From: Candidatus Jorgensenbacteria bacterium
GTDB lineage: Bacteria; Patescibacteriota; Minisyncoccia; UBA6257; GWB1-50-10
Direction of reading: 5' to 3'
Assembly: GCA_043797305.1 (NCBI GenBank)
Contig: JAZDPW010000024.1
Coordinates: 16,650 to 80,649, forward strand
Length of the DNA stretch: 64,000 nt
Every line of letters begins with the position of its first letter. Position 1 is the first letter of the stretch. The translations under genes and the position numbers were made by a program. A model generated the notes under the pieces. The model was not told the origin of the DNA. It saw nothing but the letters and a program-made list of their open reading frames with translations, and ran no database searches. Shown piece by piece: positions 6,068 to 40,244 of the stretch.

Positions 6068-6888
6068 CTGCCGCCGCCTGCGCCTTCCGGCGGATTAAAT
6101 TCGGCGAGAATTCGGTTGAAACCCGAGTAACTCGAAAAATCGGGTCCTAAAATTTCTTTCGGGTCCGCCGTCGCCAAGCTCCGGCCCTTTGATTCGAGAT
6201 AATCGGCGATAACGCGGTAAGTGTCCGGAAACCATGAAGAATTCACCTGAAGCGCCGCCCGGTACATTTCTTCTTCGCTCGCCCCCTCCGCGGCCATAAG
6301 CTCCAGGAGCCCCAGCATCGCCATCCCGTGATTACAATCGGGGAAGTAAGTTGAATTGCCGCAACAAGGCCGATAAATATTCTTTGAGACGCGTAGAACG
6401 AGTTCCTGCTGTTCCTTGGTTAAAACAACAAATTCGTGGCGCGAGTAATGCTCCATCGCGTCACCGCGCGAGAACGTCCAGCCGCCGGTTGAAGCGAAAT
6501 TGCCCGCTCCGCCATAGCGGGGGTCGGCCATCGGTCCCTCCTCAAGAATCGGATTTTTGTTGGCGAGACCAAAAGCCCATAAGAGGTTCAAAACCTCACC
6601 CGAATTCTCGGGCGTCATCACCAAATTGCCGCCTTTCGCAAAGAGATTGCTTGTTTCTTCGCTCGTTCCTCCGCGATTGGAATAAAGCGCCTGGAATTTT
6701 TCTCCGTCAATTACTCCTGTTTTAACGAGCCTGTCACTCAAATCGCCCCACTTTACGGGCAAAACGAACCCGCCGGAAGGCGGAACCGCTTCGGTTTCCC
6801 TTTCATCCAAGCCATTCCGGTAAAAAAACGAAATGGCAATCAAAGAAATGGAAATTAAAATACTTATCGGAATTAATTTTTTGTTCAT
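6055..6888 (-). CDS. membrane-anchored/secreted hypothetical protein with Cys/His cluster (CCGNSTYFPDCNHG), possible metal-binding
   Basis: N-terminal hydrophobic anchor (MNKKLIPISILISISLIAISFF). Overlaps the copB 3' end by 13 nt, so it is operonic. No recognisable catalytic motif. Confidence 0.4.
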   Translation of the reverse strand: MNKKLIPISILISISLIAISFFYRNGLDERETEAVPPSGGFVLPVKWGDLSDRLVKTGVIDGEKFQALYSNRGGTSEETSNLFAKGGNLVMTPENSGEVLNLLWAFGLANKNPILEEGPMADPRYGGAGNFASTGGWTFSRGDAMEHYSRHEFVVLTKEQQELVLRVSKNIYRPCCGNSTYFPDCNHGMAMLGLLELMAAEGASEEEMYRAALQVNSSWFPDTYRVIADYLESKGRSLATADPKEILGPDFSSYSGFNRILAEFNPPEGAGGGSCGV

Positions 6889-7758: not shown

Positions 7759-8541
7759 TTAGATGAGGAATATAAGAAATCCGAGAAGGATCATCGCGAT
7801 TCCCCCGCCGAGACGCATTTCTTTTCTTTCTTCCCTCTGCCAGTTCTGCACTTTTTCAAGCAACGCATCGTTCGAAGCAATAAGAAGGATGATGACAAGC
7901 GGCAGAATGAAAATCAGGTTGTAGAGGAGAAGATAACCCAGGCCCGCGGCATAAGTCGCCGAATCGTGAAGAAGTCCCAATACCATAAGATAAGGCCCGC
8001 CGGTGCAAGGAAACTCGCAGAGTCCCACGAGCGCCCCGAGAACGAAAGCGGTCGGCACTGAGGCCTTTTCCATCAGTTCGGCAATTTTGTGATGAACGGC
8101 ACCGGGAATCTTGAGCTTAATCGGAAACCGGGGAAAAAACTCGTTTATGATGTTTATCGCTCCCAGGACGATAAGAAGCACGGCGCCGACTTTAGCCATG
8201 AAGTTCGGCGTGTTGAAAAGGTGGAGCGCCCGCAAAATCCCCAGGCCAATCATGACGTAAACGACGAAGAGTCCGGCAACGTAAGCGCCGCCGATTTTCA
8301 GTATCCCCGAGCGCAATTTTCCGATGCTGAAGAGAAAAGCGATGGTGAGAATGAGAACCGAGAACGCGCAGGGATTTATGCTGTCGATTACGGCCGCGAC
8401 CGCAATAAGCGGCAGAAGCAATTTTCCGCCGTCGCTCACGCCCCACAAAAATTCCTGTCCCGTTCCGGTGAAACGGAAGAAAAGGAAAATCCCGAGGAAC
8501 AGAGCGGCGAGAACGATTGGAACGATTATTTTCTTTCTCAT
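7759..8541 (-). CDS. ccdA: cytochrome c-type biogenesis protein CcdA / DsbD transmembrane domain
   Basis: Polytopic membrane protein carrying the two conserved cysteines of the DsbD/CcdA family (DSINPCAFSVL and CEFPCTGGPYL). Confidence 0.75.
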   Translation of the reverse strand: MRKKIIVPIVLAALFLGIFLFFRFTGTGQEFLWGVSDGGKLLLPLIAVAAVIDSINPCAFSVLILTIAFLFSIGKLRSGILKIGGAYVAGLFVVYVMIGLGILRALHLFNTPNFMAKVGAVLLIVLGAINIINEFFPRFPIKLKIPGAVHHKIAELMEKASVPTAFVLGALVGLCEFPCTGGPYLMVLGLLHDSATYAAGLGYLLLYNLIFILPLVIILLIASNDALLEKVQNWQREERKEMRLGGGIAMILLGFLIFLI

Positions 8542-21954: not shown

Positions 21955-22034
21955 TCCTTAGAATGAAAAAATTTGAACAACCTGTCAAGTTTTTAAAATG
22001 GAAGCGGGGAACCGATGTTGAGTCGGCTCCCCGC
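21955..22034 (-). promoter_or_regulatory. intergenic cassette: terminator hairpin of the LysM gene, then a TTGACA -35 and a conserved CAAATTTTTTCATTCTA block upstream of gene 21480..21920
   Basis: Minus strand: GCGGGGAGCCGAC...TCGGTTCCCCGC, then TTCCATTTTAAAAAC, then TTGACA-17nt-CATTCT, then AAGGAGG-4nt-GTG. Confidence 0.5.
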
Positions 22035-22080
22035 TTTTGCTTCCGCTTGTGCTTTCCGCCTTAGTAGGCGGGTTCCCTTG

Positions 22081-23448
22081 TTAGGAGGCCGCAGGCGTCT
22101 CCACGGTCTCGGGCTCCGGCGCGGACTGGATGTCCGGCTCGGGCTCGGCGACGGGCTCGTCGACCCCTGCGAGGGTCGCGCGCCCGCTGAAACCGAGGAA
22201 GTTCGCGCCGGGCTCGACGGGCGCCTTGGTCTCGATGACGACATAATCGCCCTCGATGACCGGCTCGTCATCGAGGAACCCGATGACGCGGTTGCCGACT
22301 GCCCGCACGGTGACCCGCCGGCTCGCCTGCCGCCGCGCCCGCTCGGCCTGCTCGACGGCCTCCCAGTCGGGGGCCGAGTGGATAGCGGCGTACTCGAACG
22401 GCTCAATGAGCGCGCCCTCGATCCAGTTCCGCCGGTACTGGATCACGTTCGCGCAGAACCCGAGCACGCAGACACCCTTGAACTCGTCCACGATCTCGTC
22501 GCCCCGACGGACGACGACGTCCAGGATCCATCCCGGCTCGCGCACGAGGACGACCTCGCGACGCGTGTCGTCACCGTAGGTCACCTCGAAGGTCCGACCG
22601 GGGCGCGACGAGATGAGGACGCGCCGTTCGTTCTGGCGCTCGAAGGTGAGATCGAACATGTCCGCGCCCTGGTGAAGACGCTGGTAGGCGGCCTGTGCCG
22701 CGTCGTCGAGAATCTCTTCTCGATTCGCCTCGGTCACACCCTCGAACTGAGAGGGTGGACCAGCCATGACACCGTCCTCAACCCCATCGGGCAGCGGCGG
22801 CATGTGGCCTCGCATGATCACGAAGTCGGCCCGGCGCTGCTCGGCCAGGCGACGCTCGTGTGAGACTCGCTCATTGTCGAGCAGCTCGTCCATGTTCCTC
22901 AGCTCCGATCGGAGAGACTTGATGGTCTCCTCGAGTCTCGCGACGACCCTCCTGAAACGCCGATTGTCGGCGAAGAAGCAGACGACCGCCACGAGGGCGA
23001 TGACGAGGAGTGCCCACACCCACCAGGGGCCGAGAGAGGACGCTTCCTCTGCGCCGGCGACCGAACCGGCGGCGACGGGTACCGGCGCTTCCGAGGCCGG
23101 TACGACCACTGAGCTTGCACCCTGACATCCCACCGTGGGGATGGCGAGGTGCTCGCCCGGGAAGACCAGCACGATCTGCCGCCCGTTACGAACGGACAGC
23201 CGACCCTGCTCCTCGAGGTAGGGATTGAAACCGTAGATCTCCTCCCAGCGAAGCGCGTCACCGCACTTCTCGTAGGCGAGGTCCCAGAGGGTCGAACCCT
23301 TCACAACCACGAACTCCTCCGTGGTCACGACGACCTGCTGTGTCGGCGGCACTGCCTCATACTGGCGCAGAGCGGCCCCTCCGAAGATAAGCGGCGCTGG
23401 GATCAGACAGCCGAGGACGAAGAGCACCTTCTTGAGGAACTTCTTCAC
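22081..23448 (-). CDS. LysM domain-containing membrane protein
   Basis: GTG start with GGAGGTG upstream. Signal peptide, then LysM domain (GSTLWDLAYEKCGDALRWEEIYGFNPYL...QIVLVFPGEHLAIP), a TM helix (WWVWALLVIALVAVVCFF) and a charged coiled-coil-like segment. The plus-strand ORF 22015..22863 is its antisense shadow (GC3 supports the minus strand). Confidence 0.7.
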   Translation of the reverse strand: MKKFLKKVLFVLGCLIPAPLIFGGAALRQYEAVPPTQQVVVTTEEFVVVKGSTLWDLAYEKCGDALRWEEIYGFNPYLEEQGRLSVRNGRQIVLVFPGEHLAIPTVGCQGASSVVVPASEAPVPVAAGSVAGAEEASSLGPWWVWALLVIALVAVVCFFADNRRFRRVVARLEETIKSLRSELRNMDELLDNERVSHERRLAEQRRADFVIMRGHMPPLPDGVEDGVMAGPPSQFEGVTEANREEILDDAAQAAYQRLHQGADMFDLTFERQNERRVLISSRPGRTFEVTYGDDTRREVVLVREPGWILDVVVRRGDEIVDEFKGVCVLGFCANVIQYRRNWIEGALIEPFEYAAIHSAPDWEAVEQAERARRQASRRVTVRAVGNRVIGFLDDEPVIEGDYVVIETKAPVEPGANFLGFSGRATLAGVDEPVAEPEPDIQSAPEPETVETPAAS

Positions 23449-23507
23449 GTTCCACCTCCATATGAAATTGTGAGGTACAGAAAAACGGCTTTCACCGTTA
23501 CCTTATT

Positions 23508-23585
23508 ATTATAATTTATATTTTTGAAAATGTCAAGCTAAATTAAAAAAGAAGCGGGGGCGCGGTGTGGAAACGCACGCCCCCA
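23508..23585 (-). promoter_or_regulatory. intergenic cassette: rho-independent terminator followed by a consensus sigma70 promoter TTGACA-17-TATAAT for the LysM gene
   Basis: Minus strand: GGGGGCGTGCG...CGCGCCCCC then GCTTCTTTTTT, then TTGACA(23536..23531)-ttttcaaaaatataaat-TATAAT(23513..23508), then GGAGGTGG upstream of the GTG. Confidence 0.7.
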
Positions 23586-23604
23586 TTGCTCTTCTGCGAC
23601 CGGC

Positions 23605-23778
23605 TCACGAGATGTCCTCTCTTGCTCGCTCCTCGCGACCAATCGCCTTGAATTCCTTGACGATTGCGGGAAGGAGGAAAATCAGGAGGACAACCTTCGC
23701 TAATCGCGAAGGAATCGAAACGCAGGCGAAGAAGCCTAGCGCCACGAGAACCTCCGCGACAACTGAATTGAGCTTCAT
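23605..23778 (-). CDS. small membrane protein (57 aa)
   Basis: ATG with GAGGAGG 5 nt upstream: MKLNSVVAEVLVALGFFACV...LLIFLLPAIV. Flanked by a terminator hairpin downstream and a promoter upstream. Confidence 0.5.
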   Translation of the reverse strand: MKLNSVVAEVLVALGFFACVSIPSRLAKVVLLIFLLPAIVKEFKAIGREERAREDIS

Positions 23779-23807
23779 AACCGCCTCCTCGGGGCAAGGG
23801 TTGCTAT

Positions 23808-23885
23808 CTATAGAATGAAAAAATTGACGCGACTTGTCAAATAAAAACGAAGGAGGGGCGCGGTGCTTCCGCACTCACGCCCCTC
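23808..23885 (-). promoter_or_regulatory. intergenic cassette: terminator hairpin followed by TTGACA -35 and the same conserved CAATTTTTTCATTCTA block as at 21955..21995
   Basis: Minus strand: GAGGGGCGTGAGTGCGGAAGCACCGCGCCCCTC then CTTCGTTTTTAT, then TTGACA-17nt-CATTCT, then GAGGAGG-5nt-ATG of the 57-aa gene. Confidence 0.55.
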
Positions 23886-23910
23886 TTGCTTATTCCTCGA
23901 CGGCTTGCCG

Positions 23911-24636
23911 CTACGAACTGCGGCGGCAGTCGACGTACTCGGCCGGGTCGAGGCCGAGCTCAACGAGATCGAGTCCCCGCCGGCAGGCCTTGAAGGCGAT
24001 CAGGTCGACCACTTCTTCGGCGCCGCTGACCTCGAGAAGCTGCAGGCGGACGTCGTTCAGGACAGCCCGCTTGAACTCCGCGGACGTCGTGCCGATCGCT
24101 CCCAACTTGCCGTCTCCGTCGCTCCGGAAGAAGATGGAAACGCTGTTGGACTCGAAGACGTTGCCGGGTGGGTTCAGGAGGTAAGCGATCTCCTCAACGA
24201 CATCGAAGGGGTCGTCGAGATAGACGAGTTCCAACCCTCCGTCGGCGAGCGCATGCCAGTGGCACGGTTCGGCCTTGAGCCGGACCAGCCGCGGCATGGA
24301 GAGAACAGCGAGGAACCTCTTCGCGAGTTCCCGCCGCTCGACCTCCGCGAGCGCTTCGGAAACCGTCGGTCTCTGCGCCGGCGGAGTCCGACTCTCCTCG
24401 ATGAGCTGGTTGGTCGACTCGACTATCCGGTCGAGGCGAACCCGCTCGCGGCAGATATCCACGAACTGCCGCTCATAGTCGGAGGGCGGAGTCGCGTAGA
24501 CGGTCTCGATCTCATCACCTACTCTCGGCGTCAGCGTCCTGCCGACCGCGATGTAGATCATGATCATGAGAGATAGCGCGCCGAGTGTTGCGGCGGCGGG
24601 CTTGAGCCACACCGGGAGCCTCTTCATGGTACCCAT
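23911..24636 (-). CDS. membrane-anchored hypothetical protein
   Basis: N-terminal anchor MGTMKRLPVWLKPAAATLGALSLMIMIYIAV. High GC3 on the minus frame. The plus-strand ORFs 23834..24184 and 23863..24576 are judged antisense shadows. Confidence 0.55.
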   Translation of the reverse strand: MGTMKRLPVWLKPAAATLGALSLMIMIYIAVGRTLTPRVGDEIETVYATPPSDYERQFVDICRERVRLDRIVESTNQLIEESRTPPAQRPTVSEALAEVERRELAKRFLAVLSMPRLVRLKAEPCHWHALADGGLELVYLDDPFDVVEEIAYLLNPPGNVFESNSVSIFFRSDGDGKLGAIGTTSAEFKRAVLNDVRLQLLEVSGAEEVVDLIAFKACRRGLDLVELGLDPAEYVDCRRSS

Positions 24637-32636: not shown

Positions 32637-32658
32637 CACACCCCCGCAGATAAAGCGA

Positions 32659-32700
32659 GAGGCCCGAGACGAAATTCGTCTCGGGCCTCTTCACTTTCGG
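32659..32700. terminator. rho-independent terminator between convergent genes 32292..32636 (+) and 32714..32914 (-)
   Basis: GAGGCCCGAGACG-AAAT-TCGTCTCGGGCCTC (14-bp stem) followed by TTCACTTTCGG. Confidence 0.7.
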
Positions 32701-32713
32701 ATTCGGGAAAATT

Positions 32714-32914
32714 TTATTCCGCTCTTTTCGGAACGATTAAAATGGCGATTAAATAAACGATGATGGCCGGCAGAATCCCGCTCATGATTGTAATCACGAG
32801 CCAAATTAAACGAAGAAAAACCGGGTCAATTTCAAAATACTCCCCTACGCCGCCCAAGATACCGGCAAAGGTTTTGTTGTTGTTGCTCCGATAAAATTTT
32901 TTGATATGGGTCAT
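32714..32914 (-). CDS. PspC domain membrane protein
   Basis: MTHIKKFYRSNNNKTFAGILGGVGEYFEIDPVFLRLIW... matches the PspC signature (KxLYRSxxxKxIAGVCGGLAEYFGIDP). The ORF-track N-terminal extension to 32953 reads through the tRNA 3' half and is rejected. Confidence 0.75.
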   Translation of the reverse strand: MTHIKKFYRSNNNKTFAGILGGVGEYFEIDPVFLRLIWLVITIMSGILPAIIVYLIAILIVPKRAE

Positions 32915-32973
32915 ATTACGTGTCCGCCCACCAGGATTTGAACCTGGGACCATCTGCTTTCAATTGGCAGCGA

Positions 32974-33088
32974 GGCGAAAATAAATATCCCCGCTACTTG
33001 TCCCCCGTGTAGGATTTGAACCTACGACCATCTGCTTAAAAGGCAGTTGCTCTACCAGACTGAGCTAACGGGGGTATTTATTTTCGCC
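32974..33088. repeat. 14-bp perfect inverted repeat (GGCGAAAATAAATA / TATTTATTTTCGCC on the minus strand) bracketing the inner tRNA-Lys plus 13 nt
   Basis: Arms at 32974..32987 and 33075..33088 read directly from the sequence. They lie inside the intervening region of the interrupted tRNA. Confidence 0.8.
33001..33074 (-). tRNA. tRNA-Lys (anticodon UUU), 74 nt, no encoded CCA
   Basis: Hand fold: acceptor CCCCCGU/ACGGGGG (C1:G72), D-arm GCUC-AGUCUGGU-AGAGC, anticodon stem ACUGC/GCAGA with loop CUUUUAA, T-arm GUAGG-UUCAAAU-CCUAC, discriminator A. Very similar to canonical bacterial tRNA-Lys. Confidence 0.8.
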
Positions 33089-33162
33089 GAGTGAACCAAT
33101 TGCGGCGAAGCCGTAAAGGCAGTTGCTCTACCAGACTGAGCTATGGGCGGTCATTTACCGAG

Positions 33163-33546
33163 CTACGCTTTCCTTTCCTCTTTCGCTCTCTGAATCACCC
33201 TCCAGTGATAGGCAAATAGAGGAACGCCTACAATCATGAGCGCTATGGAATTTGCGGCGGTGCGCTGTCTTTGCGATTCCCTTTCTTTTTCCTGATACTC
33301 AAGCTGCTCCTGTTTGTATTTTTCCTGCTGTTCGGGCGTAAGCTCTTCTTCGGTCGTGGCCGAATCAACGCCGGGCTTTATCACCCGCGGGTACTCCGGA
33401 TAAACTACCACTCGGTCGGCTTTGGTGAATATCCAGGTCTTCAACCCTAAATCAATGAGCCGGACGGTACCGATAACTATCAAAACCAGCCCGAGGAGCG
33501 AGAAAAGGTAGAGATAAATTGTCCGTATTAATTCTTTGCGTTCCAT
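33163..33546 (-). CDS. hypothetical membrane protein (2 TM) with glutamate/lysine-rich linker
   Basis: 127 aa, TM helices near both termini. No motif recognised. Confidence 0.45.
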   Translation of the reverse strand: MERKELIRTIYLYLFSLLGLVLIVIGTVRLIDLGLKTWIFTKADRVVVYPEYPRVIKPGVDSATTEEELTPEQQEKYKQEQLEYQEKERESQRQRTAANSIALMIVGVPLFAYHWRVIQRAKEERKA

Positions 33547-33600
33547 ATTTTTACTATACCAAATTCACTTTTTTTTTGCAACAAACCACTCTAATTAAAG

Positions 33601-33689: not shown

Positions 33690-33950
33690 ATAGTATATGT
33701 ATTCCCCGGCCCGCCTCGCCGAAGACAAGCTTCAGTTTCCTAAAACCTATGTCGGCAGTACCACTGACTTAAAGAGGAGGTTGGCAGAGCATAACAGCGG
33801 GAAAACCATTATTCTCCGCAAGGTATAAGCCATGGAGAGTGATTTATACGGAGGAGTTTGCTAACATAAGTGAAGCTAGAACCAGAGAAAAATATTTCAA
33901 GAGCGCAGCTGGCAGAAGATTGATAAAAAAGTTAATAAACAACGATTCCC
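33690..33950 (+). pseudogene. GIY-YIG nuclease family gene, disrupted (frameshift, N-terminal GIY motif lost)
   Basis: Frame 1 gives ...KTYVGSTTDLKRRLAEHNSGK then a stop. A shifted frame continues PWRVIYTEEFANISEARTREKYFKSAAGRRLIKKL, which matches the C-terminal half of small GIY-YIG (Uri-domain) proteins. The 3' end runs into tRNA-Asn. Confidence 0.6.
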
Positions 33951-34018
33951 CGGTAGCTCAGTGGTAGAGCGACCGCCTGTTAAGCGGTTGGCCGTAGGTT
34001 CGAATCCTACCCGGGGAG
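33947..34018 (+). tRNA. tRNA-Asn (anticodon GUU), 72 nt
   Basis: Hand fold: acceptor UCCCCGG/CCGGGGA, D-arm GCUC-AGUGGUA-GAGC, anticodon stem ACCGC/GCGGU with loop CUGUUAA, T-arm GUAGG-UUCGAAU-CCUAC, discriminator G. Confidence 0.8.
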
Positions 34019-34050
34019 CAATCCTTCGCTAAAGCTTCGGAATTGCAGGC

Positions 34051-34353
34051 ATGTATTATTGTTATATTTTACTAAGCTCAAAATCTCATATCTTCTATTT
34101 TGGTTCTACAAATAATATTGAGGGGAGATTAAAATTGCATAATTCTGGTCAAGTTCAATCAACAAAACCTCACATGCCGTGGAAGTTGGTATGGTATGGC
34201 TCTTTTGAAACAGAAAAACAAGCAAGAGATTTTGAGCAATATCTTAAAACTGGTTCTGGTAAGGCATTTGCATACAAGCGTCTAGTTGCCGAGGCTTTAG
34301 AGAAGGATTTTCTGGAGGGTAGAAAAGGTAGTCCGAAGTCTAAGAAGACGTAG
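34051..34353 (+). CDS. GIY-YIG nuclease family protein (small, Uri-domain only)
   Basis: YYCYILLSSKSHIFYFGSTNNIEGRLKLHNSG...KPWKLVWYGSFETEKQARDFEQYLKTGSGKAF. Intact paralog of the upstream pseudogene. Confidence 0.75.
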   Translation: MYYCYILLSSKSHIFYFGSTNNIEGRLKLHNSGQVQSTKPHMPWKLVWYGSFETEKQARDFEQYLKTGSGKAFAYKRLVAEALEKDFLEGRKGSPKSKKT

Positions 34354-34659
34354 GATACCCTACCCGGGGAGCTGATTAGAAAATCAATGCCGCCTTTTTG
34401 GGCGGCGTTAGATTTTCAATCATCCGGCGAATGCAATGAGCCGGATACAATACCTGGCCTTATGTCAGGTGTTTTTGGTTTCCGATTTTTTGCGGGTGAG
34501 AAGCAAATCGCTAAAGCACTGCTGTTTACACGTCAATCATTCCTCTTGAGTAAGCAAGGAGCCTACCCGCAGAGCCACACTTGACAGAACACTAATAATA
34601 TGATATGCTTAAAGGAGTAGGGTTGCTAAATCGGCCTGTTGACATACGGAGAGTTGCAG

Positions 34660-34863
34660 ATGACTACCACATGGGACAAGGCTGGATCGATCGTCCTGGG
34701 CTTGCTCATGAGCCTGTTCTTCAGAGCCCCGGGAGCGATCCTGATCCTTCTGATCATCTTCGTGTATCAGAGGCACACGAAGAAGAAGGTTTTCTTCTAC
34801 TGCGTTCGTGGTGTGGGGCTGGGATTTGCCATCTTCGTCCTGGCGTACCTGCGCCAGATGTAG
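34660..34863 (+). CDS. small hypothetical membrane protein
   Basis: GGAGAG 7 nt upstream of ATG (MTTTWDKAGSIVLGLLMSLFF...). Followed by a hairpin+T-run terminator. GC-rich patch. The overlapping minus-strand ORF 34609..34923 is judged spurious. Confidence 0.4.
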   Translation: MTTTWDKAGSIVLGLLMSLFFRAPGAILILLIIFVYQRHTKKKVFFYCVRGVGLGFAIFVLAYLRQM

Positions 34864-34873
34864 CACCGTCCTC

Positions 34874-34917
34874 CGCCCGCAGAAGCCGCTCGGCTCTGTC
34901 GGGCGGTTTTCTTTTTC
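34874..34917 (+). terminator. rho-independent terminator
   Basis: CCGCCCG...CGGGCGG stem followed by TTTTCTTTTT. Confidence 0.6.
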
Positions 34918-35045
34918 ATACAAAGCTTAAAACCTCTTCTAATTCTCTCCCCAACTGATGCCAGTCAACAGTTCTAAACACATCCAACAGGCGGAGCACT
35001 TCGACAAGCTCAGTGCAAACCAAAACGTAGGGGTAAATGTAATAT

Positions 35046-36200
35046 CTATTTTTTATTCTTCTCGGATTTACCTGAATTAAGTAGTTTCTTGGGTACTCGC
35101 GGTTCTTCTTCAATTCTTTTTATTCCTTCGCCAACAGGAATATTACCACCAAGGTCATTGATTCGATCTATTTCGGGTCGTACTCTAGTTTCAAAGGAAC
35201 CGATAGCTTCGTTAAACTTTTTCGTCGCCTGTGAAATATTTAGACCTATTCCGCCAACATGACCAAAAAATGTTTCCAATCTACCTTTTAATTCCTCAAC
35301 CTCATTTTTAATCTTCGTTGCATTTTCTGTAACTCTGTACTGTTCCCATCCATTACGGATTAAAAGTATCAGCGGTATTATTATAGACCGACTTGCCAAC
35401 ATTACATTCTTACTTTGGGCTTCAGAGTATAGATCATTGTCGTGTTGAAGAGCTTCTAGTAATGCACTTTCAATCGGGACAAACATAACTACATATGGAA
35501 TTTTCGTGTCAACATATTTCTGATATTCCTTACTCGACAAATCCCTAATTTTCTTTCTTAGGCCGTCAATAAAATTCTCGATGTGCTTAATTCTTTCTTC
35601 TGGTTGTTCTTCTTCGCGTGCTTTCTCGAACTCATACAAACTTGCCAAGCTCGCTTTGGAATCCACCGCGAGGGTCATCCCTCCTGGAAGACGAATAGTA
35701 AAATCTGGCCTTAAAATAGACGAACCTTCACCCGAAACAGTTTCTTGAACATCAAAATCCGTTCCTTTGGCCATCCCCGCTTTCTCAAGTAAATTACTTA
35801 GGGTTGCCTCTCCCCATCTGCCTATAGCAGTACCACTGGAAGAAAGCACCGTCTTGAGCATCTTGGCTGAATCGCTTATTTCCTGACCAGTTTTCAGAAC
35901 TTGCCCAATGCCGGCAACCAGTTTACCCACTTGTTCGTTTTGTTCCTTCTCCAACTTATCAACCCTCGTTCCTACCGATTCAACCAGATTTTTAACGTTT
36001 TTTTCCGCGTCGCCGAATTTCGTGCCAGCTAGTCGCAGAAAATCCTCCGAACTTTGGCGGAGGACGTCGCCTGCAATAACTTTAAATTTATCCTCAAGTT
36101 CCTCCGGGCTCTTTCCTTTACGTTTAAATAAGAACCAACCCGCCAATAAACCGATGACGCCACCCACAACAAACGATATTAAAAACTCTAAATAGATCAT
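35046..36200 (-). CDS. rmuC: DNA recombination protein RmuC family
   Basis: N-terminal TM helix, long coiled-coil, and the RmuC core with TAIGRWGEATLSNLLEKAG (cf. RGNWGExxLERVLE). 384 aa. The start overlaps the stop of the upstream gene (ATGA). Confidence 0.75.
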   Translation of the reverse strand: MIYLEFLISFVVGGVIGLLAGWFLFKRKGKSPEELEDKFKVIAGDVLRQSSEDFLRLAGTKFGDAEKNVKNLVESVGTRVDKLEKEQNEQVGKLVAGIGQVLKTGQEISDSAKMLKTVLSSSGTAIGRWGEATLSNLLEKAGMAKGTDFDVQETVSGEGSSILRPDFTIRLPGGMTLAVDSKASLASLYEFEKAREEEQPEERIKHIENFIDGLRKKIRDLSSKEYQKYVDTKIPYVVMFVPIESALLEALQHDNDLYSEAQSKNVMLASRSIIIPLILLIRNGWEQYRVTENATKIKNEVEELKGRLETFFGHVGGIGLNISQATKKFNEAIGSFETRVRPEIDRINDLGGNIPVGEGIKRIEEEPRVPKKLLNSGKSEKNKK

Positions 36201-38977
36201 TTTAGGGAGTCCTTAATTTTTTGAACTTCGGTGCTTAGTTTTAAATCAATCGTAAGATTATTCTTGATCTTCTCATAAGCATATATTGCCGTAGTATGAT
36301 CGAAGCCAAACAGCTTGCTTATAGACGGGAAAGACAAACCGATTAAATCACGAAGTAGGTAAACGGCAATTTGTCTGGGAATAGCCACGTATGCTTGCCG
36401 TGTCCTTCTCTTTATTTCAGAAACACTAATTCCATAAAATTTAGCCACATTGGCGATTATTCTTTCCTGCAAGCCGAGTAAATTATTTTCCCCTTCTTTT
36501 ATTAGACCCCATCCCTTTGCAGGGAACTTAGCGGTTTGCTTGTATCCATATTTTTTTTCGAGCGCACCTTCTATAATCTGCCTAACCCTCTCTCTTGTAA
36601 TAGGTTGGAATTTTTTAGCGATTTCTTCTAGGGTATGTGGTCTTTGCTCATTTAACCCGAATTTAAGCTCAACCATAAGTTTTTCTCTATCCCCAAGGCC
36701 CTCAGTTATCGTTTTCCACGGGGCATATTGAGTTTTCTCGGCTAATTTAAGTTCTTGCTTCTCCAAATAATTAATCTCTGTTACGAAGTGCTTATAAATA
36801 GATGGGCCGTATTCGTACTTTTTTTGAGAAATGTAGTAAAGCACATCGTAATCTGATCTCTTAGGCAAGGTTCCTTTCTGGATAGCTTCTGGGATCGTTA
36901 CGTTTAACGATTCATTTAGTATTGTTTCTGCTAAGTAAAGTTGTGCAATCGTTGATTTCTCAACGTCAGATTTCTTAGGATTTTCCCCAAAGTACTTAAC
37001 ATTGATGGGGTGGTTTGGGTTAATTAGAATGAAACTGCACGTTGGACTTTCCTGATAAGGATCATATGTGGCCTGGAATGGCATAGTGACTTTTTCATCA
37101 AAATCCCAACCCCGAAATTTGCCAACGAGCCCACTGGGATTTCTAACGGGTTTGTCTTTAATATCAACCCTGGCTTGGGCAGAGTATTCTTTACAATACG
37201 CCTCTATGATTCCAGATTCTTCTGTTTTTTCTCCGATAAAAATAACTGGATATTTAACAATCACTCCGTGCCTGAAATGTTTAGGAGACAAGATGAGCTT
37301 TTGGAGTTTAAGTTTTATATATTTATTTGAACTGGTGAATTTGATCTCGTCACCATTTTTAACGAATCGTGAATCTATGTATAAATTCAGTTTACTTTCT
37401 CTGTTAACAATTGCGCTGAAATAGTCGGGGCTAAAAGCAATACTATTTTCTGGATAGAAAATGTCCTGATGTATAACGGTAACTACCACAGAAGCTTTCC
37501 TTCGTTCAAACGTAGCTACTAACGTGTCTACGGTTTCCGGTCGCGTGCCATAGATTGTAACTGTCTTGATTAAAATATCATCAGCATCTTTATTTGGTTT
37601 TTCGACTTTTATTAATTCCGGAGTAAAGCCAATACTTTTCTTAGAAGAATTTACTCTTATAAGAGAACCTGGTTTAATGACCCGCGTATCTATAGCAAGT
37701 TGGAGCCCATATTTTTTCTTAGCTGTAATCATAATTTGACCTCTGGCGAATTCAATGCCACCTGCCGGTCTTTTCTTGATCACCGCCCTAATCGTCCCAC
37801 TAGCATTTTCGCCTGTAAGTTGAGAATACAATTTATTAAGTTCGTCGAATGCAAGCTTGTGTCTTTCTTGAGTTTCCTCTGACAACCCATCATTGGTGAG
37901 ATTTCGACGCCCTTTATTTAAAATCGGGTATAGCCAATCCTTAATAATTTGTTGTAAGTTTTTATAAAACTCGTGCTGTTGATTAAATCCATCGCGCGTA
38001 TCTGACAGTATTTCCTCAGGATGTTTTTTGCTATTAATCTTAGCCAGAATTATTTCTCTTACACCCGTCAATCTCATGAAACCGTAATACTTATCTGCAC
38101 CAGGAAAATTATCCAAACCGAAAAAGGTCTGATCATATACAGCATCCTTATCGTCATAGACCAATAATCCACTTTCTCTTTCGTCACCAATCATCGATAA
38201 AGGATTACTTGATCTATAGAGGTCCACATCTATTTTTACTGGGGCATAATTTTCAAATTGCATAGGAAATTCTTTGTGTTCCACTAGCTCTCCCTTCTGA
38301 GGGACATATTTTATTACAGCCTCTCTTTTCCCCCCTTTCCGGTTTGTATGCTGTAAAATAATTCTTCGATTATCATTTGTGTTTATTAATCGGAGCGTGT
38401 AAAAACCACTTAGTTTATCGGCCATGTTTTCAAATTCATGGAGGACAGTATCTTTATCGGCAATGAACTCAACAACCGTTCCACTCGAGGAATTTATTCC
38501 CCACTCTTTCGAGAGTATGTTTATATCTTTTCTAATTCTCTCAACATTGATAAATCTTTTTTCTCCTCTCTCATAAAATTTACAAATTGAAGCTTCACCA
38601 TCCTTAATGGATTTAATTGTGCCTTGAGAGTGATAGAAAAGGACATCGGAAATGCCTTGTCCAAATATTCCTCGCACGCCATATCCCGCATAAGCTCCAC
38701 TTTTTTCTGCCCCATAAGTTTCAAATTTATTCTCGAGACCCTTAGTCGTCATACCTTCTGCTTGATCGATTATCCGGACCAGCCGACTCTCCTTGTTTAT
38801 CTGGATAATAATTGGATGTATTGCCTCATTATTGTTGCTTTTAGTTGTTAAAATACGATAACTATCATCAGAATTTGTTATTGGCTCTGTGAGCGTCTTA
38901 AGAATGTTTTTACCAACAGCATTTGAGCTCTTGCGTTTTATATAGCGTGATGCAATTTTGACTTCTATTTCTGACAT
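36197..38977 (-). CDS. 926-aa multidomain protein: N-terminal GHKL (Bergerat-fold, HATPase_c-like) ATPase, large unknown middle, then a sigma-70 region-4-like HTH, then a DnaA domain-IV-like DNA-binding domain
   Basis: GHKL motifs: N-box TEPITNSDDS (ExxxNxxD), G1-like IIDQAEGM, G2 GYGVRGIFGQGIS, SSSGTVVEF. Near the C-terminus, TLEEIAKKFQPITRERVRQIIEGALEKK matches sigma-70 region 4.2. The final 90 aa, ISVSEIKRRTRQAYVAIPRQIAVYLLRDLIGLSFPSISKLFG-FDHTTAIYAYEKIKNNL, align with DnaA domain IV (...[46 protein letters not shown]...). Confidence 0.6.
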   Translation of the reverse strand: MSEIEVKIASRYIKRKSSNAVGKNILKTLTEPITNSDDSYRILTTKSNNNEAIHPIIIQINKESRLVRIIDQAEGMTTKGLENKFETYGAEKSGAYAGYGVRGIFGQGISDVLFYHSQGTIKSIKDGEASICKFYERGEKRFINVERIRKDINILSKEWGINSSSGTVVEFIADKDTVLHEFENMADKLSGFYTLRLINTNDNRRIILQHTNRKGGKREAVIKYVPQKGELVEHKEFPMQFENYAPVKIDVDLYRSSNPLSMIGDERESGLLVYDDKDAVYDQTFFGLDNFPGADKYYGFMRLTGVREIILAKINSKKHPEEILSDTRDGFNQQHEFYKNLQQIIKDWLYPILNKGRRNLTNDGLSEETQERHKLAFDELNKLYSQLTGENASGTIRAVIKKRPAGGIEFARGQIMITAKKKYGLQLAIDTRVIKPGSLIRVNSSKKSIGFTPELIKVEKPNKDADDILIKTVTIYGTRPETVDTLVATFERRKASVVVTVIHQDIFYPENSIAFSPDYFSAIVNRESKLNLYIDSRFVKNGDEIKFTSSNKYIKLKLQKLILSPKHFRHGVIVKYPVIFIGEKTEESGIIEAYCKEYSAQARVDIKDKPVRNPSGLVGKFRGWDFDEKVTMPFQATYDPYQESPTCSFILINPNHPINVKYFGENPKKSDVEKSTIAQLYLAETILNESLNVTIPEAIQKGTLPKRSDYDVLYYISQKKYEYGPSIYKHFVTEINYLEKQELKLAEKTQYAPWKTITEGLGDREKLMVELKFGLNEQRPHTLEEIAKKFQPITRERVRQIIEGALEKKYGYKQTAKFPAKGWGLIKEGENNLLGLQERIIANVAKFYGISVSEIKRRTRQAYVAIPRQIAVYLLRDLIGLSFPSISKLFGFDHTTAIYAYEKIKNNLTIDLKLSTEVQKIKDSLK

Positions 38978-38982
38978 ATTAG

Positions 38983-39633
38983 TTATTGAAACAGGTTTTT
39001 AAATTCTTTCTCTAGCCAGTCCAAGAACGCTAGGACTTTTTTATTCTTAGCCGCCGCGGCCGATTGTTTTAGCTGTTCAAGGTATTTAGATAATAGGTGT
39101 TGGGGAGTATACGGCACAGCTTTCAGGAAGGACAAAACTTCGTAATCAGTAACCGAAAAATCCTTGTTTTGCCATTTTTGGAACAAATGAGATTTTTCCA
39201 TTTCTAAAACGTCATCTTGCGGAGATCGTCCGCGCGAACGTTTTGATGATGAAGCCGCACTTAGTTTTAGTCTGGTGGGATGTTTTAGTAGATCCTCAGT
39301 TTGTAATGCAACCTCCTTTCCCGTTTCTGTCAGACAAAATCCATTCTCGATGTTACCGGTTGCCCAATTTTTTCGTTTAGGATCCGCTAATCTTCTAAGG
39401 GACTTATTGATCCTGTTCGTATCTGGATACTCTTTGAAATTAGCCATGGAGAATTTATTTGGAAACATTTTGAAAAGACCAACAACTATGTGATCGAAAT
39501 ATAGGGGTATTTTTTTTCTTTCTAAGACGATGAGGCTATAAACCACCAATCTGTCCAAATCAAAATTTTCGTAGCTCTTAACAGAGAGTGGTCTGAAACT
39601 AAATATTATTTTTTTGTAATCGATGTTTTTCAT
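38983..39633 (-). CDS. hypothetical protein (216 aa), second gene of the AT-rich operon
   Basis: Long ORF in an AT-rich context, 6 nt upstream of the 926-aa gene, and overlapped by the 72-aa gene by 4 nt. No motif recognised. Confidence 0.45.
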   Translation of the reverse strand: MKNIDYKKIIFSFRPLSVKSYENFDLDRLVVYSLIVLERKKIPLYFDHIVVGLFKMFPNKFSMANFKEYPDTNRINKSLRRLADPKRKNWATGNIENGFCLTETGKEVALQTEDLLKHPTRLKLSAASSSKRSRGRSPQDDVLEMEKSHLFQKWQNKDFSVTDYEVLSFLKAVPYTPQHLLSKYLEQLKQSAAAAKNKKVLAFLDWLEKEFKNLFQ

Positions 39634-39848
39634 AATTTAAATTCTGTTCCGCGTTTTTGCTCACCTCTAAATCTGGCTTCGGCTTTCATTAGTGAATCAC
39701 GGAGCGCTCCGAATATTTTTCGCAGCTGCTCCGGTGTATATTCGTATAAACTTTTATTAGACAGATTTGAAAGGACCCTGATCTCGTTTAAGACTTTTCT
39801 GGTCCTTTTTTCTGCCAAACGTTTAAATCTTTCACTTTTGTTCTCCAT
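39630..39848 (-). CDS. hypothetical small protein (72 aa), first gene of the AT-rich operon
   Basis: ORF with a charged helical character. Its stop overlaps the start of the next gene. Confidence 0.35.
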   Translation of the reverse strand: MENKSERFKRLAEKRTRKVLNEIRVLSNLSNKSLYEYTPEQLRKIFGALRDSLMKAEARFRGEQKRGTEFKL

Positions 39849-39924
39849 AATATTTAATATACTCTTTAATATTATGTTGTAAAGTATATCACAAATACTT
39901 TTATAAAGTCAATACCACGACCTG

Positions 39925-39933
39925 TGGATAACT
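39925..39933 (-). promoter_or_regulatory. perfect DnaA box (TTATCCACA on the minus strand) about 80 nt upstream of the operon start. A second 7/9 match (TTATCCAAT) lies near 40116..40124
   Basis: Plus-strand tgtggataa read directly. An AT-rich tract lies between the box and the first gene. Confidence 0.5.
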
Positions 39934-40244
39934 TCCCTCCGAGGATGCGCCGAAAGGAGGGGTTTTAGGGGAGGAATTGCGGCGCGCCCGAGGCGAAGCC
40001 CCGAAGCCCCGAAGGCCGCCAGCAGGCGGACGAGGGGCGGAGAGGCTGAACAGCTTAATCAATCCCCGAATCAGGGTATTGTCGGGGGTAACGACTTTCC
40101 AGAGAAGCCGCATTTTAATTGGATAAAAATTAGATTTACCCCTTCGTTCTAGAACGTAGGGGTCAACGAAGGGGTAGACGACCCCCTTTTGGGTCAGGAA
40201 TTTTCCATAAAATACCCTCGGACTTGTTCATATGAGCGAGCTAA

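Follow-up and report, generated by a model that had tools for sequence, protein, structure and literature searches.

To our knowledge, bacterial transfer RNA (tRNA) genes are thought to be interrupted by group I introns only, or to be displaced at their ends by integrating elements. Here we analysed a locus on the minus strand of a 64-kb stretch of DNA from a Candidatus Jorgensenbacteria bacterium (64,000 nucleotides (nt) of contig JAZDPW010000024.1, assembly GCA_043797305.1; the whole stretch is called the window below), in which a complete tRNA-Lys(UUU) gene with short flanks lies between the two halves of another tRNA-Lys gene. From comparison with related loci (labelled L with a number), the insert is best read as belonging to a recurrent system of cassettes, apparently undescribed, through which tRNA-Lys genes are replaced by nesting.

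By analogy, the closest functional parallel is tRNA-dependent lysogeny, in which an actinobacteriophage inactivates the host tRNA-Lys(UUU) gene and makes up for the loss by bringing a tRNA of that isotype (Guerrero-Bustamante and Hatfull 2024, PMC10865867). As in that system, a tRNA-Lys gene is disrupted here and not rebuilt, and the incoming tRNA is of the same isotype. There, however, a whole prophage, a tyrosine integrase and a common core of about 10 bp are involved, whereas the insert in the window measures 154 bp and has neither a protein gene nor a core repeat; moreover, it lies in the anticodon loop, with the new tRNA nested in the old one. The closest positional parallel, again by analogy, is formed by the group I introns at position 35/36 of the genes for tRNA-Asn and tRNA-Asp of Patescibacteria (Nakagawa et al. 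2026, PMC13011429), where Lys is not mentioned. These introns share with our locus the phylum, the junction after U35, a gene that is missed by standard finders and the lack of a homing-endonuclease gene. In contrast, the insert in the window has no catalytic core, its leader and trailer amount to only about 80 nt, and its cargo is a tRNA.

Disrupted tRNA genes have also been described in archaea, namely those with multiple bulge-helix-bulge (BHB) introns and the split and permuted tRNAs of Nanoarchaeota and Thermoproteales (PMC4090602, PMC4390854). There too loops are interrupted and a leader/trailer-type helix unites the halves, and short hairpin inserts are present in D-, anticodon- and T-loops of loci related to ours. 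The window differs in that it comes from a bacterium, has no BHB at the junction and shows no splicing endonuclease. We know of no archaeal intron that holds a tRNA. Phage tRNA clusters are turned over by homing endonucleases such as SegB of T4 through break-induced gene conversion (PMC2330249; PMC13096335). A tRNA with its flanks is likewise copied to a related genome in that process, and GIY-YIG or HNH genes occur near the window's nest (34051..34353), in L136 and in L060; but the cassette is without an endonuclease gene, and the GIY-YIG association is anecdotal. Processing stems of rRNA operons and tRNA punctuation resemble the locus in the leader-trailer duplex round a structured RNA and in an excision by RNase P and RNase Z that cuts the surrounding transcript; here, however, it is a tRNA gene that provides the surrounding transcript, and the unit is apparently mobile or replaceable. 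In the literature no report was found of a tRNA gene nested in another tRNA gene, and the sole match for a 'nested tRNA' was tRNA-Sec inside the selB coding sequence. The known kinds to which the locus can be compared are tRNA-targeting elements that carry a replacement tRNA and anticodon-loop insertions at 35/36; the nested arrangement is apparently undescribed.

Anatomy and ancestry of the nested locus

At 33150..32923 on the minus strand two tRNA halves stand 154 nt apart, and the space between them is taken up by a 40-nt leader, an intact tRNA-Lys(UUU) and a 40-nt trailer, without any open reading frame (ORF). The parts are listed in the order of the minus strand.

33150..33115, minus strand: outer (resident, A-type) tRNA-Lys, 5' half, positions 1-35, 36 nt, sequence CCGCCCATAGCTCAGTCTGGTAGAGCAACTGCCTTT
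33115..33150, minus strand: content of the outer 5' half, with acceptor strand CCGCCCA, D-arm, 5' strand of the anticodon stem and loop CUUU
33114..33075, minus strand: leader, 40 nt
33103..33113, minus strand: leader hairpin P1, CGGC-TTC-GCCG, starting 1 nt past the junction
33096..33102, minus strand: leader strand of helix P2, CAATTGG, pairing with 32961..32967 (inverted-repeat search and folding)
33089..33095, minus strand: internal loop, conserved leader side TTCACTC (family consensus GGTTCRYTCGG)
33075..33088, minus strand: leader strand of helix P3, GGCGAAAATAAATA, with position -1 of the inner tRNA as its last base
33074..33001, minus strand: inner intact B-type tRNA-Lys(UUU), 74 nt (ARAGORN, Rfam)
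33000..32961, minus strand: trailer, 40 nt
32988..33000, minus strand: trailer spacer CAAGTAGCGGGGA, which holds a pseudo-acceptor strand
32974..32987, minus strand: trailer strand of P3, TATTTATTTTCGCC
32968..32973, minus strand: internal loop, conserved trailer side TCGCTG (family consensus CCTCGCTGCC)
32961..32967, minus strand: trailer strand of P2, CCAATTG, its last base abutting the outer 3' half
32960..32923, minus strand: outer tRNA-Lys, 3' half, positions 36-73, 38 nt, sequence AAAGCAGATGGTCCCAGGTTCAAATCCTGGTGGGCGGA
32923..32960, minus strand: content of the outer 3' half, with first base A (T36 in relatives), 3' strand of the anticodon stem, variable loop, T-arm CCAGG-TTCAAAT-CCTGG, acceptor strand TGGGCGG and A73

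A preliminary description of this DNA, made from its letters alone, had reported the two halves on the minus strand at 33150..33115 and 32960..32923, and both were found there with complete pairing between them (7/7 in the acceptor stem, 5/5 in the T-stem), as it had stated. The inner gene, likewise predicted, was called tRNA-Lys(ttt) by ARAGORN and matched Rfam RF00005 with 71.5 bits against a cut-off of 29; its acceptor stem is CCCCCGT/ACGGGGG, its T-stem GTAGG/CCTAC and its discriminator A73, and CCA is not encoded. The common D-arm and anticodon-stem sequence was seen as 28 identical bases at positions 8-35 of the inner and outer gene. The perfect 14-bp inverted repeat (32974..32987 / 33075..33088) was verified, and a 7-bp repeat (32961..32967 / 33096..33102) was newly added to it. 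Folding of the 228-nt unit as RNA, a check that had been proposed, gave a cloverleaf nested in a cloverleaf at -93.8 kcal/mol (z = -5.4 vs shuffles). The anatomy had thus been described correctly; the ancestry of the outer gene and the cassette family had not been recognised.

The window junctions read CCTTT/ACGGC and AATTG/AAAGC (here and below the slash within a junction marks the border between gene and insert), and no direct repeat or common core sequence of the kind that marks the attachment sites of a prophage or island was found at the two. No further cassette copies were found within the window. The pseudo-acceptor strand in the trailer, AGCGGGGA, makes P3 extendable to 23 nt with 91% complementarity (32974..32996 / 33066..33088). 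This 23-nt duplex uses the 5' end of the inner tRNA, competing with the true acceptor stem, and is present in this window's cassette only.

Syntenic loci were collected via homologues of the DUF5671 membrane-protein gene upstream of the nest. Whether relatives hold an uninterrupted tRNA-Lys had been raised in the preliminary description, and such tRNA-Lys(UUU) genes were present between DUF5671 and PspC/NUDIX genes in L115/L116 and L122 (94% amino-acid identity to the window in DUF5671), L121 (88%) and L117-L120 (79%). They are of the outer type, with acceptor stem CCGCCCA/TGGGCGG and T-arm CCAGG-TTCAAAT-CCTGG. The joined outer halves matched the gene of L115 at 72/74 positions, the differences being G27A and T36A; the 5' half equals the intact syntenic gene of L115 and L122 but for G27A, and the DUF5671 gene showed 88.8% nucleotide identity between the window and L115. 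Judged by its sequence, the locus is far beyond chance, because the joined halves match the relatives' intact syntenic tRNA-Lys so closely. Since relatives hold an uninterrupted tRNA-Lys in the same gene order, the window can be regarded as the insertion allele of an ordinary gene, and the outer gene is very probably the ancestral one that was interrupted by insertion.

The inner gene is 93-96% identical to the free-standing B-type tRNA-Lys genes of relatives. Compared with the A-type gene it agrees at 63/74 positions, with paired differences in acceptor stem and T-stem, and on this alignment it is a different allele, not a copy of the outer gene. The B-type is the native tRNA-Lys directly after DUF5671 in L135 and L142, and a C-type tRNA-Lys (CCCCCCA) stands at the same site in L146; by their position, other relatives have B- and C-type genes as native alleles of the DUF5671 locus.

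Joined by hand, the outer halves were folded by ARAGORN into a cloverleaf with the loop CUUUAAA and called tRNA-Stop(tta); the joined gene has a cloverleaf but no sense anticodon. In place, the outer gene was not reported by ARAGORN even with intron options, presumably being masked by the overlapping inner tRNA, and Rfam gave a partial tRNA match only (14.5 bits). A search by tRNA finders, as had been suggested, was therefore successful for the joined halves and not for the gene in place. TAA is the commonest stop in the window (18/38 long ORFs end with it), in agreement with the earlier doubt about a spliced product with anticodon UUA. Among related loci, the outer gene of L143 is damaged by a 2-nt deletion and its anticodon-stem strands are non-complementary, the outer acceptor strands of L125 are mismatched, and the outer halves of L142 and L117 are lost. 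Because T36A gives the anticodon UUA, TAA is the commonest stop and the L143 outer gene is damaged, we read the outer halves as relics in differing stages of decay and the inner tRNA as the working gene, with the same moderate confidence as the model presented below. Splicing of young nests seems unlikely.

Recurrent cassettes in relatives and the structure of their flanks

Metagenomes were scanned with the 5' end of the B-type gene, which gave 17 loci, and these were combined with the syntenic loci. In L143 (80%, same synteny) a reciprocal nest was found, an A-type gene within a decayed B-type gene, and either allelic type is seen to serve as cargo or target when window and L143 are compared. 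The L143 cassette has a 56-nt leader, a 42-nt trailer and flanks homologous to those of the window; its junction reads CCCTTT/...CCAATTG/TAAGCAGA, the full trailer end being ...GCCTCGCTGCCAATTG/TAAGCAGA. L128 and L133, two assemblies one base apart, contain three consecutive 5' halves ending CTCCCTTT/ with a leader after each, followed by an intact B-type tRNA, a trailer, a matching C-type 3' half and another trailer. The inner pair of halves in L128 rejoins to a perfect tRNA-Lys(ttt). A contig search for the 3' halves of the two outermost 5' halves of L128 found none, and the stack is therefore not a perfect Russian doll. In L125 a tRNA-less cassette, with the leader joined to the trailer, was found at the same junction of a relic. 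L142 holds a B-type gene, a trailer and 12 nt of the outer 3' half, and L117 a free-standing A-type gene with a leader and the first 15 nt of an L143-type trailer; from their sequences these two look like eroded cassettes. In L142 (739-800) the start codon of PspC (ATG in ...TAAGCAAATGGTAAAAAAT) lies within the 12-nt remnant of the outer 3' half, and a tRNA fragment therefore appears to have been taken over as a translation start.

Several independent cassettes are compact, with leaders of 41-58 nt, trailers of 34-42 nt and no element body. At all 7 readable junctions the insert was located between T35 and position 36 without duplication; as far as these junctions can be read, insertion is precise and without target duplication. 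In this clade, free-standing tRNA-Lys genes have the leader as their native 5' flank (L117), and a leader-type remnant, GCTCGGTAAATGA, stands directly upstream of the window's outer tRNA, overlapping the stop codon of DUF5671. The loci of L125 and L122 are clearly reshuffled by recombination. A general scan of contigs for the order 'D-arm, CTTTV, D-arm' returned mostly Bacteroidales pseudo-tRNA repeats and one Paceibacterota 5' fragment but no nest, and the leader and trailer motifs had 0 matches in IMG/VR viral contigs apart from 1 chance match in a coding region.

The family leader motif is GGTTCRYTCGG followed by N-R-AAAAYAAAT, and the trailer motif is ATTTATTTT-NN-CCTCGCTGCC-AAYTG. When the tRNA was replaced by GAAA and the flanks were folded, an architecture of P1, P2, internal loop and P3 was predicted in four cassettes: P2 (7 bp in the window) joins the outer ends, the internal loop is conserved, and P3 (14 bp in the window) abuts the tRNA. 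The position of P1 is occupied by an inverted-repeat sequence in all six leaders (the window and five in L143, L128 and L125), the sequences being unrelated; RNAfold gave a hairpin for 5/6 of the segments, and 4 of those were more stable than nearly all shuffles. The flank alignment by MAFFT is not structure-aware, and pairs were therefore counted by script. Between the window and cassette L125e, 4/7 P2 pairs and 5/14 P3 pairs were changed on both sides with pairing kept. The right arm of P2 is terminal; its left arm is set back from the end by 13-30 nt, with the variable P1 hairpin in front of it. IS200/IS605-type elements have conserved subterminal hairpins at either end and insert 3' of a fixed tetranucleotide without duplicating it. 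In comparison with these, insertion is always 3' of CTTT without duplication; the 5' hairpin differs per copy and a 3' hairpin is absent.

No Rfam ribozyme or intron family was matched at E up to 10 by the inserts of the window region and seven related loci. The group I catalytic core (Rfam Intron_gpI) was not found at the gathering score, nor at E up to 10 on the 401-nt region; the same search did find a true group I intron elsewhere in L126. U35 stands before every insert; in L128/L133 the insert has T as its last base, whereas it is G in the window, L143, L125e and L142. A group I-type P1 pairing at the junction was considered and rejected by inspection. No bulge-helix-bulge (3-nt bulges, 4 bp apart) was present at the junctions, where both the minimum-free-energy and the centroid structure give a three-way junction of anticodon stem, P1 and P2; a BHB register there was also rejected on manual inspection. 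The splicing endonuclease EndA was not found among the annotated ORFs of the 64-kb window.

A proposed replacement cassette and its alternatives

The model which we favour, with moderate confidence, is that the resident tRNA-Lys(UUU) was cut at 35/36 by a 154-bp replacement cassette with a tRNA-Lys(UUU) of another allelic type. The nest would be transcribed within the DUF5671-tRNA-PspC unit, and the inner tRNA would be freed by RNase P and a 3' endo- or exonuclease and then supply tRNA-Lys(UUU). RNase III, which is encoded by a relative (L147), would perhaps first open the leader/trailer duplex (up to 23 bp in the window). The outer halves would be by-products, and a joined product would in the window bear the anticodon UUA. 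Spread of the cassette among tRNA-Lys alleles would be site-specific or homing-like, by gene conversion or insertion at 35/36, with an enzyme that is not encoded near the locus; candidates for its entry are a homing-like gene conversion via the conserved tRNA core flanking 35/36, a trans-acting site-specific enzyme or an RNA-level route. Later erosion of the relic halves would restart the cycle. A more far-reaching version, which we regard as doubtful, is a protein-less, intron-like mobile cassette with tRNA cargo that homes to 35/36 of its own isoacceptor gene, is excised by the ordinary tRNA-processing enzymes as they act on the nested tRNA, with the conserved leader/trailer structure as a guide, and has its halves re-ligated at least in young nests, in Patescibacteria and perhaps in phages.

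Several observations weigh against the replacement model. Only 2/74 positions of the outer gene are changed relative to the intact orthologue, which points to a very recent disruption or to continuing constraint, and the level 3 outer gene of L128 is flawless and joins to a perfect Lys(UUU) loop, CTTTTAA. P1 and P2 are located at the exon junction, far from the inner tRNA, and their conservation is unneeded for the mere release of that tRNA. There are only about five independent cassettes. The marks of a miniature inverted-repeat transposable element or insertion sequence, terminal inverted repeats at both ends and a target-site duplication, are missing, and at 30-50 kb of the window neither an integrase nor a transposase or reverse transcriptase was found. 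In the flank helices G.T and A.C intermediates occur 4 vs 4, and because they are equally frequent the helices could act in RNA or in single-stranded or cruciform DNA. The G.T pairs in P2 and P3 had been considered as evidence of an RNA-level helix; this was dropped, since A.C mismatches (G.T on the other strand) are equally common.

Three readings had been left open in the preliminary description, of which a disruption or a scar was somewhat favoured. The disruption of a tRNA gene by a tRNA-carrying mini-element is the one supported here, by the empty site in relatives and the homologous cassettes at the same 35/36 site. The second, a spliced intron with a functional outer tRNA, corresponds to a genuine nested intron that gives two tRNAs per transcript and is removed either by a new small ribozyme (P1, P2, loop and P3) or by RNase P and RNase Z with trimming and an RtcB/Rnl-type ligase. 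The junction at exactly 35/36, where group I introns of Patescibacteria splice after U35 (PMC13011429), would fit it, as would the conserved, structured and covarying P1 and P2 at the exon junction, the intact level 3 outer gene of L128, an insert in the window that ends in G and is preceded by U, and two phage tRNA-Lys(UUU) genes (L060 and L148, described below) with another tRNA in the anticodon loop, perfect outer stems and perfect rejoined loops. The rejoined loop of the window, however, would carry an ochre-suppressor anticodon where TAA is the commonest stop, the outer anticodon stem of L143 is unable to form, the outer acceptor strands of L125 do not match, and L142 and L117 are without outer halves. 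Neither the Rfam searches nor the fold, a three-way junction and not a BHB, gave a known intron signature; RNase P/Z cuts would leave the 40-nt leader and trailer on the halves, and the phage nests are without counterpart among 50,697 deposited phage records. With T36A and an anticodon for UAA, splicing is disfavoured in the window, and we consider a nested intron unlikely. It is quite unlikely, too, that the locus is the remnant of a larger phage or island of the 'tRNA-dependent lysogeny' kind that entered tRNA-Lys and was later deleted down to the tRNA and its flanks. Mycobacteriophages do disrupt the host tRNA-Lys-TTT by integration and bring a phage tRNA-Lys-TTT (PMC10865867), which a disrupted outer gene around a tRNA-Lys(UUU) of the same isotype fits, and the region looks like a hotspot, with a low-GC island and a GIY-YIG gene by a tRNA-Asn about 900 bp away and a serine recombinase in L117. 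Against this, several independent cassettes are equally compact and hold no element body, no core repeat is common to both junctions, the leader stands natively 5' of free-standing tRNA-Lys genes in the clade, and the flank motifs have no true match in IMG/VR viral contigs.

The third of these readings was a scar left by a single local duplication or by illegitimate recombination, without an element family and without function beyond chance. Related loci are indeed mosaic (a tandem partial copy in L122, mismatched outer halves in L125), real tRNAs are preceded by 5' tRNA fragments in L081 and Bacteroidales genomes, and the identity of positions 8-35 suggests gene conversion between inner and outer gene. 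A scar is nevertheless very unlikely: the inner gene is a different allele (63/74) with compensatory acceptor- and T-stem differences, and the recurrence of junction and homologous flanks in independent genomes with either allele as cargo, together with the covarying flank helices, would be left unexplained. An artefact of metagenome assembly, in which reads of co-occurring A-type and B-type strains were joined, could be favoured by the 28 identical bases common to the two genes, and a terminal inverted duplication of 130 bp in the related contig L128 is suspicious. The junctions CTTT/ACGG and AATTG/AAAG, however, are outside the shared repeat and would not be produced by a repeat-induced chimera, and the same architecture was assembled independently in L143, L128 and L133 from different samples; we therefore regard an artefact as extremely improbable.

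Genomic neighbourhood, other unusual tRNA loci and implications

The nest is surrounded by the following features, again in the order of the minus strand.

33553..33581, minus strand: sigma-70-like promoter match upstream of DUF5671, the only one on this strand near the locus (consensus match only)
33163..33546, minus strand: DUF5671 membrane-protein gene, upstream synteny anchor (Pfam, homologues)
32714..32914, minus strand: PspC-domain gene, downstream synteny anchor (Pfam)
32658..32690, minus strand: terminator-like hairpin after PspC (consensus match only)

The same gene order with PspC is present in L118, L119, L121, L142 and L143, and DUF5671 homologues were found in metagenome-assembled genomes (MAGs) of Patescibacteria, or candidate phyla radiation (CPR), belonging to Jorgensenbacteria, Terrybacteria, Minisyncoccia and Doudnabacteria. 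No protein identical to the window's DUF5671 or PspC was found in the collections searched. No separate promoter was found for the tRNA nest. Since the only promoter-like site precedes DUF5671 and a terminator-like hairpin follows PspC, DUF5671, the nest and PspC probably form one transcription unit. Between the DUF5671 stop and the tRNA the sequences of the window and L115 are different, which suggests import or inheritance of the complete nested allele in one block.

A stand-alone GIY-YIG gene of 100 amino acids (34051..34353, plus strand) is located about 900 bp from the nest and 32 nt downstream of a tRNA-Asn gene (33947..34019, plus strand). In L136 (8456-8728) a GIY-YIG gene is located 136 nt downstream of a rearranged tRNA-Lys(CUU), and small GIY-YIG genes may be linked to rearranged tRNA loci. 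The tRNA-Asn is adjoined by a low-GC island at about 34000..40000 (38-43% vs ~49%), the genes of which encode RmuC as well as a 926-aa protein with a C-terminal sigma-70 region 4 and a DnaA C-terminal helix-turn-helix, and several ORFs without a Pfam match. At the equivalent position L117 has a large serine recombinase, and the region looks like a hotspot of island integration. Elsewhere in the window, 22001..24000 forms a local GC peak of 62.5% vs ~49%.

Two phage contigs contain other nests. In L060 (IMGVR_UViG_3300029904_000003, about 8060-8285, minus strand) a phage tRNA-Pro(UGG) with a 12-nt trailer lies at 35/36 of a tRNA-Lys(UUU); the outer acceptor stem GACTCCT/AGGAGTC and the anticodon stem are perfect, and the joined halves were called tRNA-Lys(ttt). 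An HNH-like ORF follows about 40 nt downstream. Because the L060 nest has no leader, a cut by RNase P would coincide with the junction. In L148 (IMGVR_UViG_3300013947_000465, 6105-6255, plus strand) a phage tRNA-Asn(GUU) followed by CC is inserted at 36/37 of a tRNA-Lys(UUU) with the outer acceptor stem GAAGATG/CATCTTC and the rejoined loop CTTTTAA. For neither nest was a full-length match found among the 50,697 deposited phage genomes.

Relic tRNA-Lys genes with short GC-rich hairpin inserts were observed in L122 (651-744), L139 (minus strand, about 1100-1200), L125 (6143-6217), L126 (6440-6560), L123 (about 690-770) and L136 (7898-7950). Their fixed places are the T-loop, where homologous inserts follow GGTTC in L122 and L139, the D-stem or D-loop, the anticodon loop and, in L126, even the acceptor strand; by sequence they resemble a family of small palindromic elements with tRNA loops as targets. 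Bacteroidales/Rikenellaceae MAGs (L079-L114; for example L082 1002-1630, and L093) have 1 to about 10 tandem truncated pseudo-tRNA-Lys units immediately upstream of a real tRNA-Lys(UUU). These units consist of an acceptor, a D-arm, a tetraloop-like anticodon arm (GCTTTGC) and a broken T-arm, and a small GIY-YIG ORF (MFTVYILYS...) often comes after. In L081, a Candidatus Paceibacterota MAG (JAGLIM010000016.1, 1686-1831), a 35-nt 5' half (GCCGTCT...ACGCACTTT) stands 37 nt upstream of a tRNA-Thr(CGU); its D-arm and anticodon-stem 5' strand are those of the tRNA-Thr, and a downstream 3' half is absent. The inverted duplication of L128 (1-130 vs 1760-1890, 130 bp) places the same gene end on both sides of the nest and could be a fold-back assembly artefact or an invertible segment, and the same contig has three long hairpins with common arms CCCCGTTAGAAA/TTTCTAACGGGG at 1410-1745. 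Upstream of tRNA-Lys in L132 and L140, DUF5671 is apparently internally deleted, with its N-terminal codons (MERKE.IRTIYLY) fused to C-terminal codons.

If the replacement model holds, minimal genomes can exchange essential tRNA genes that are present as a single copy, by way of nested replacement. The locus and its relatives offer a concrete system for testing ideas on the origin of tRNA genes that are split or contain introns, and on the reasons for which anticodon loops are targeted. They also point to a blind spot of annotation, as the outer gene and similar genes on phage contigs are invisible to standard tRNA finders. Should the cassette be spliced, or be actively mobile without a protein of its own, it would represent a new kind of genetic element. 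Under excision with re-ligation of the halves, the finding would mean a bacterial tRNA-punctuated splicing pathway and a tRNA gene that replaces itself.

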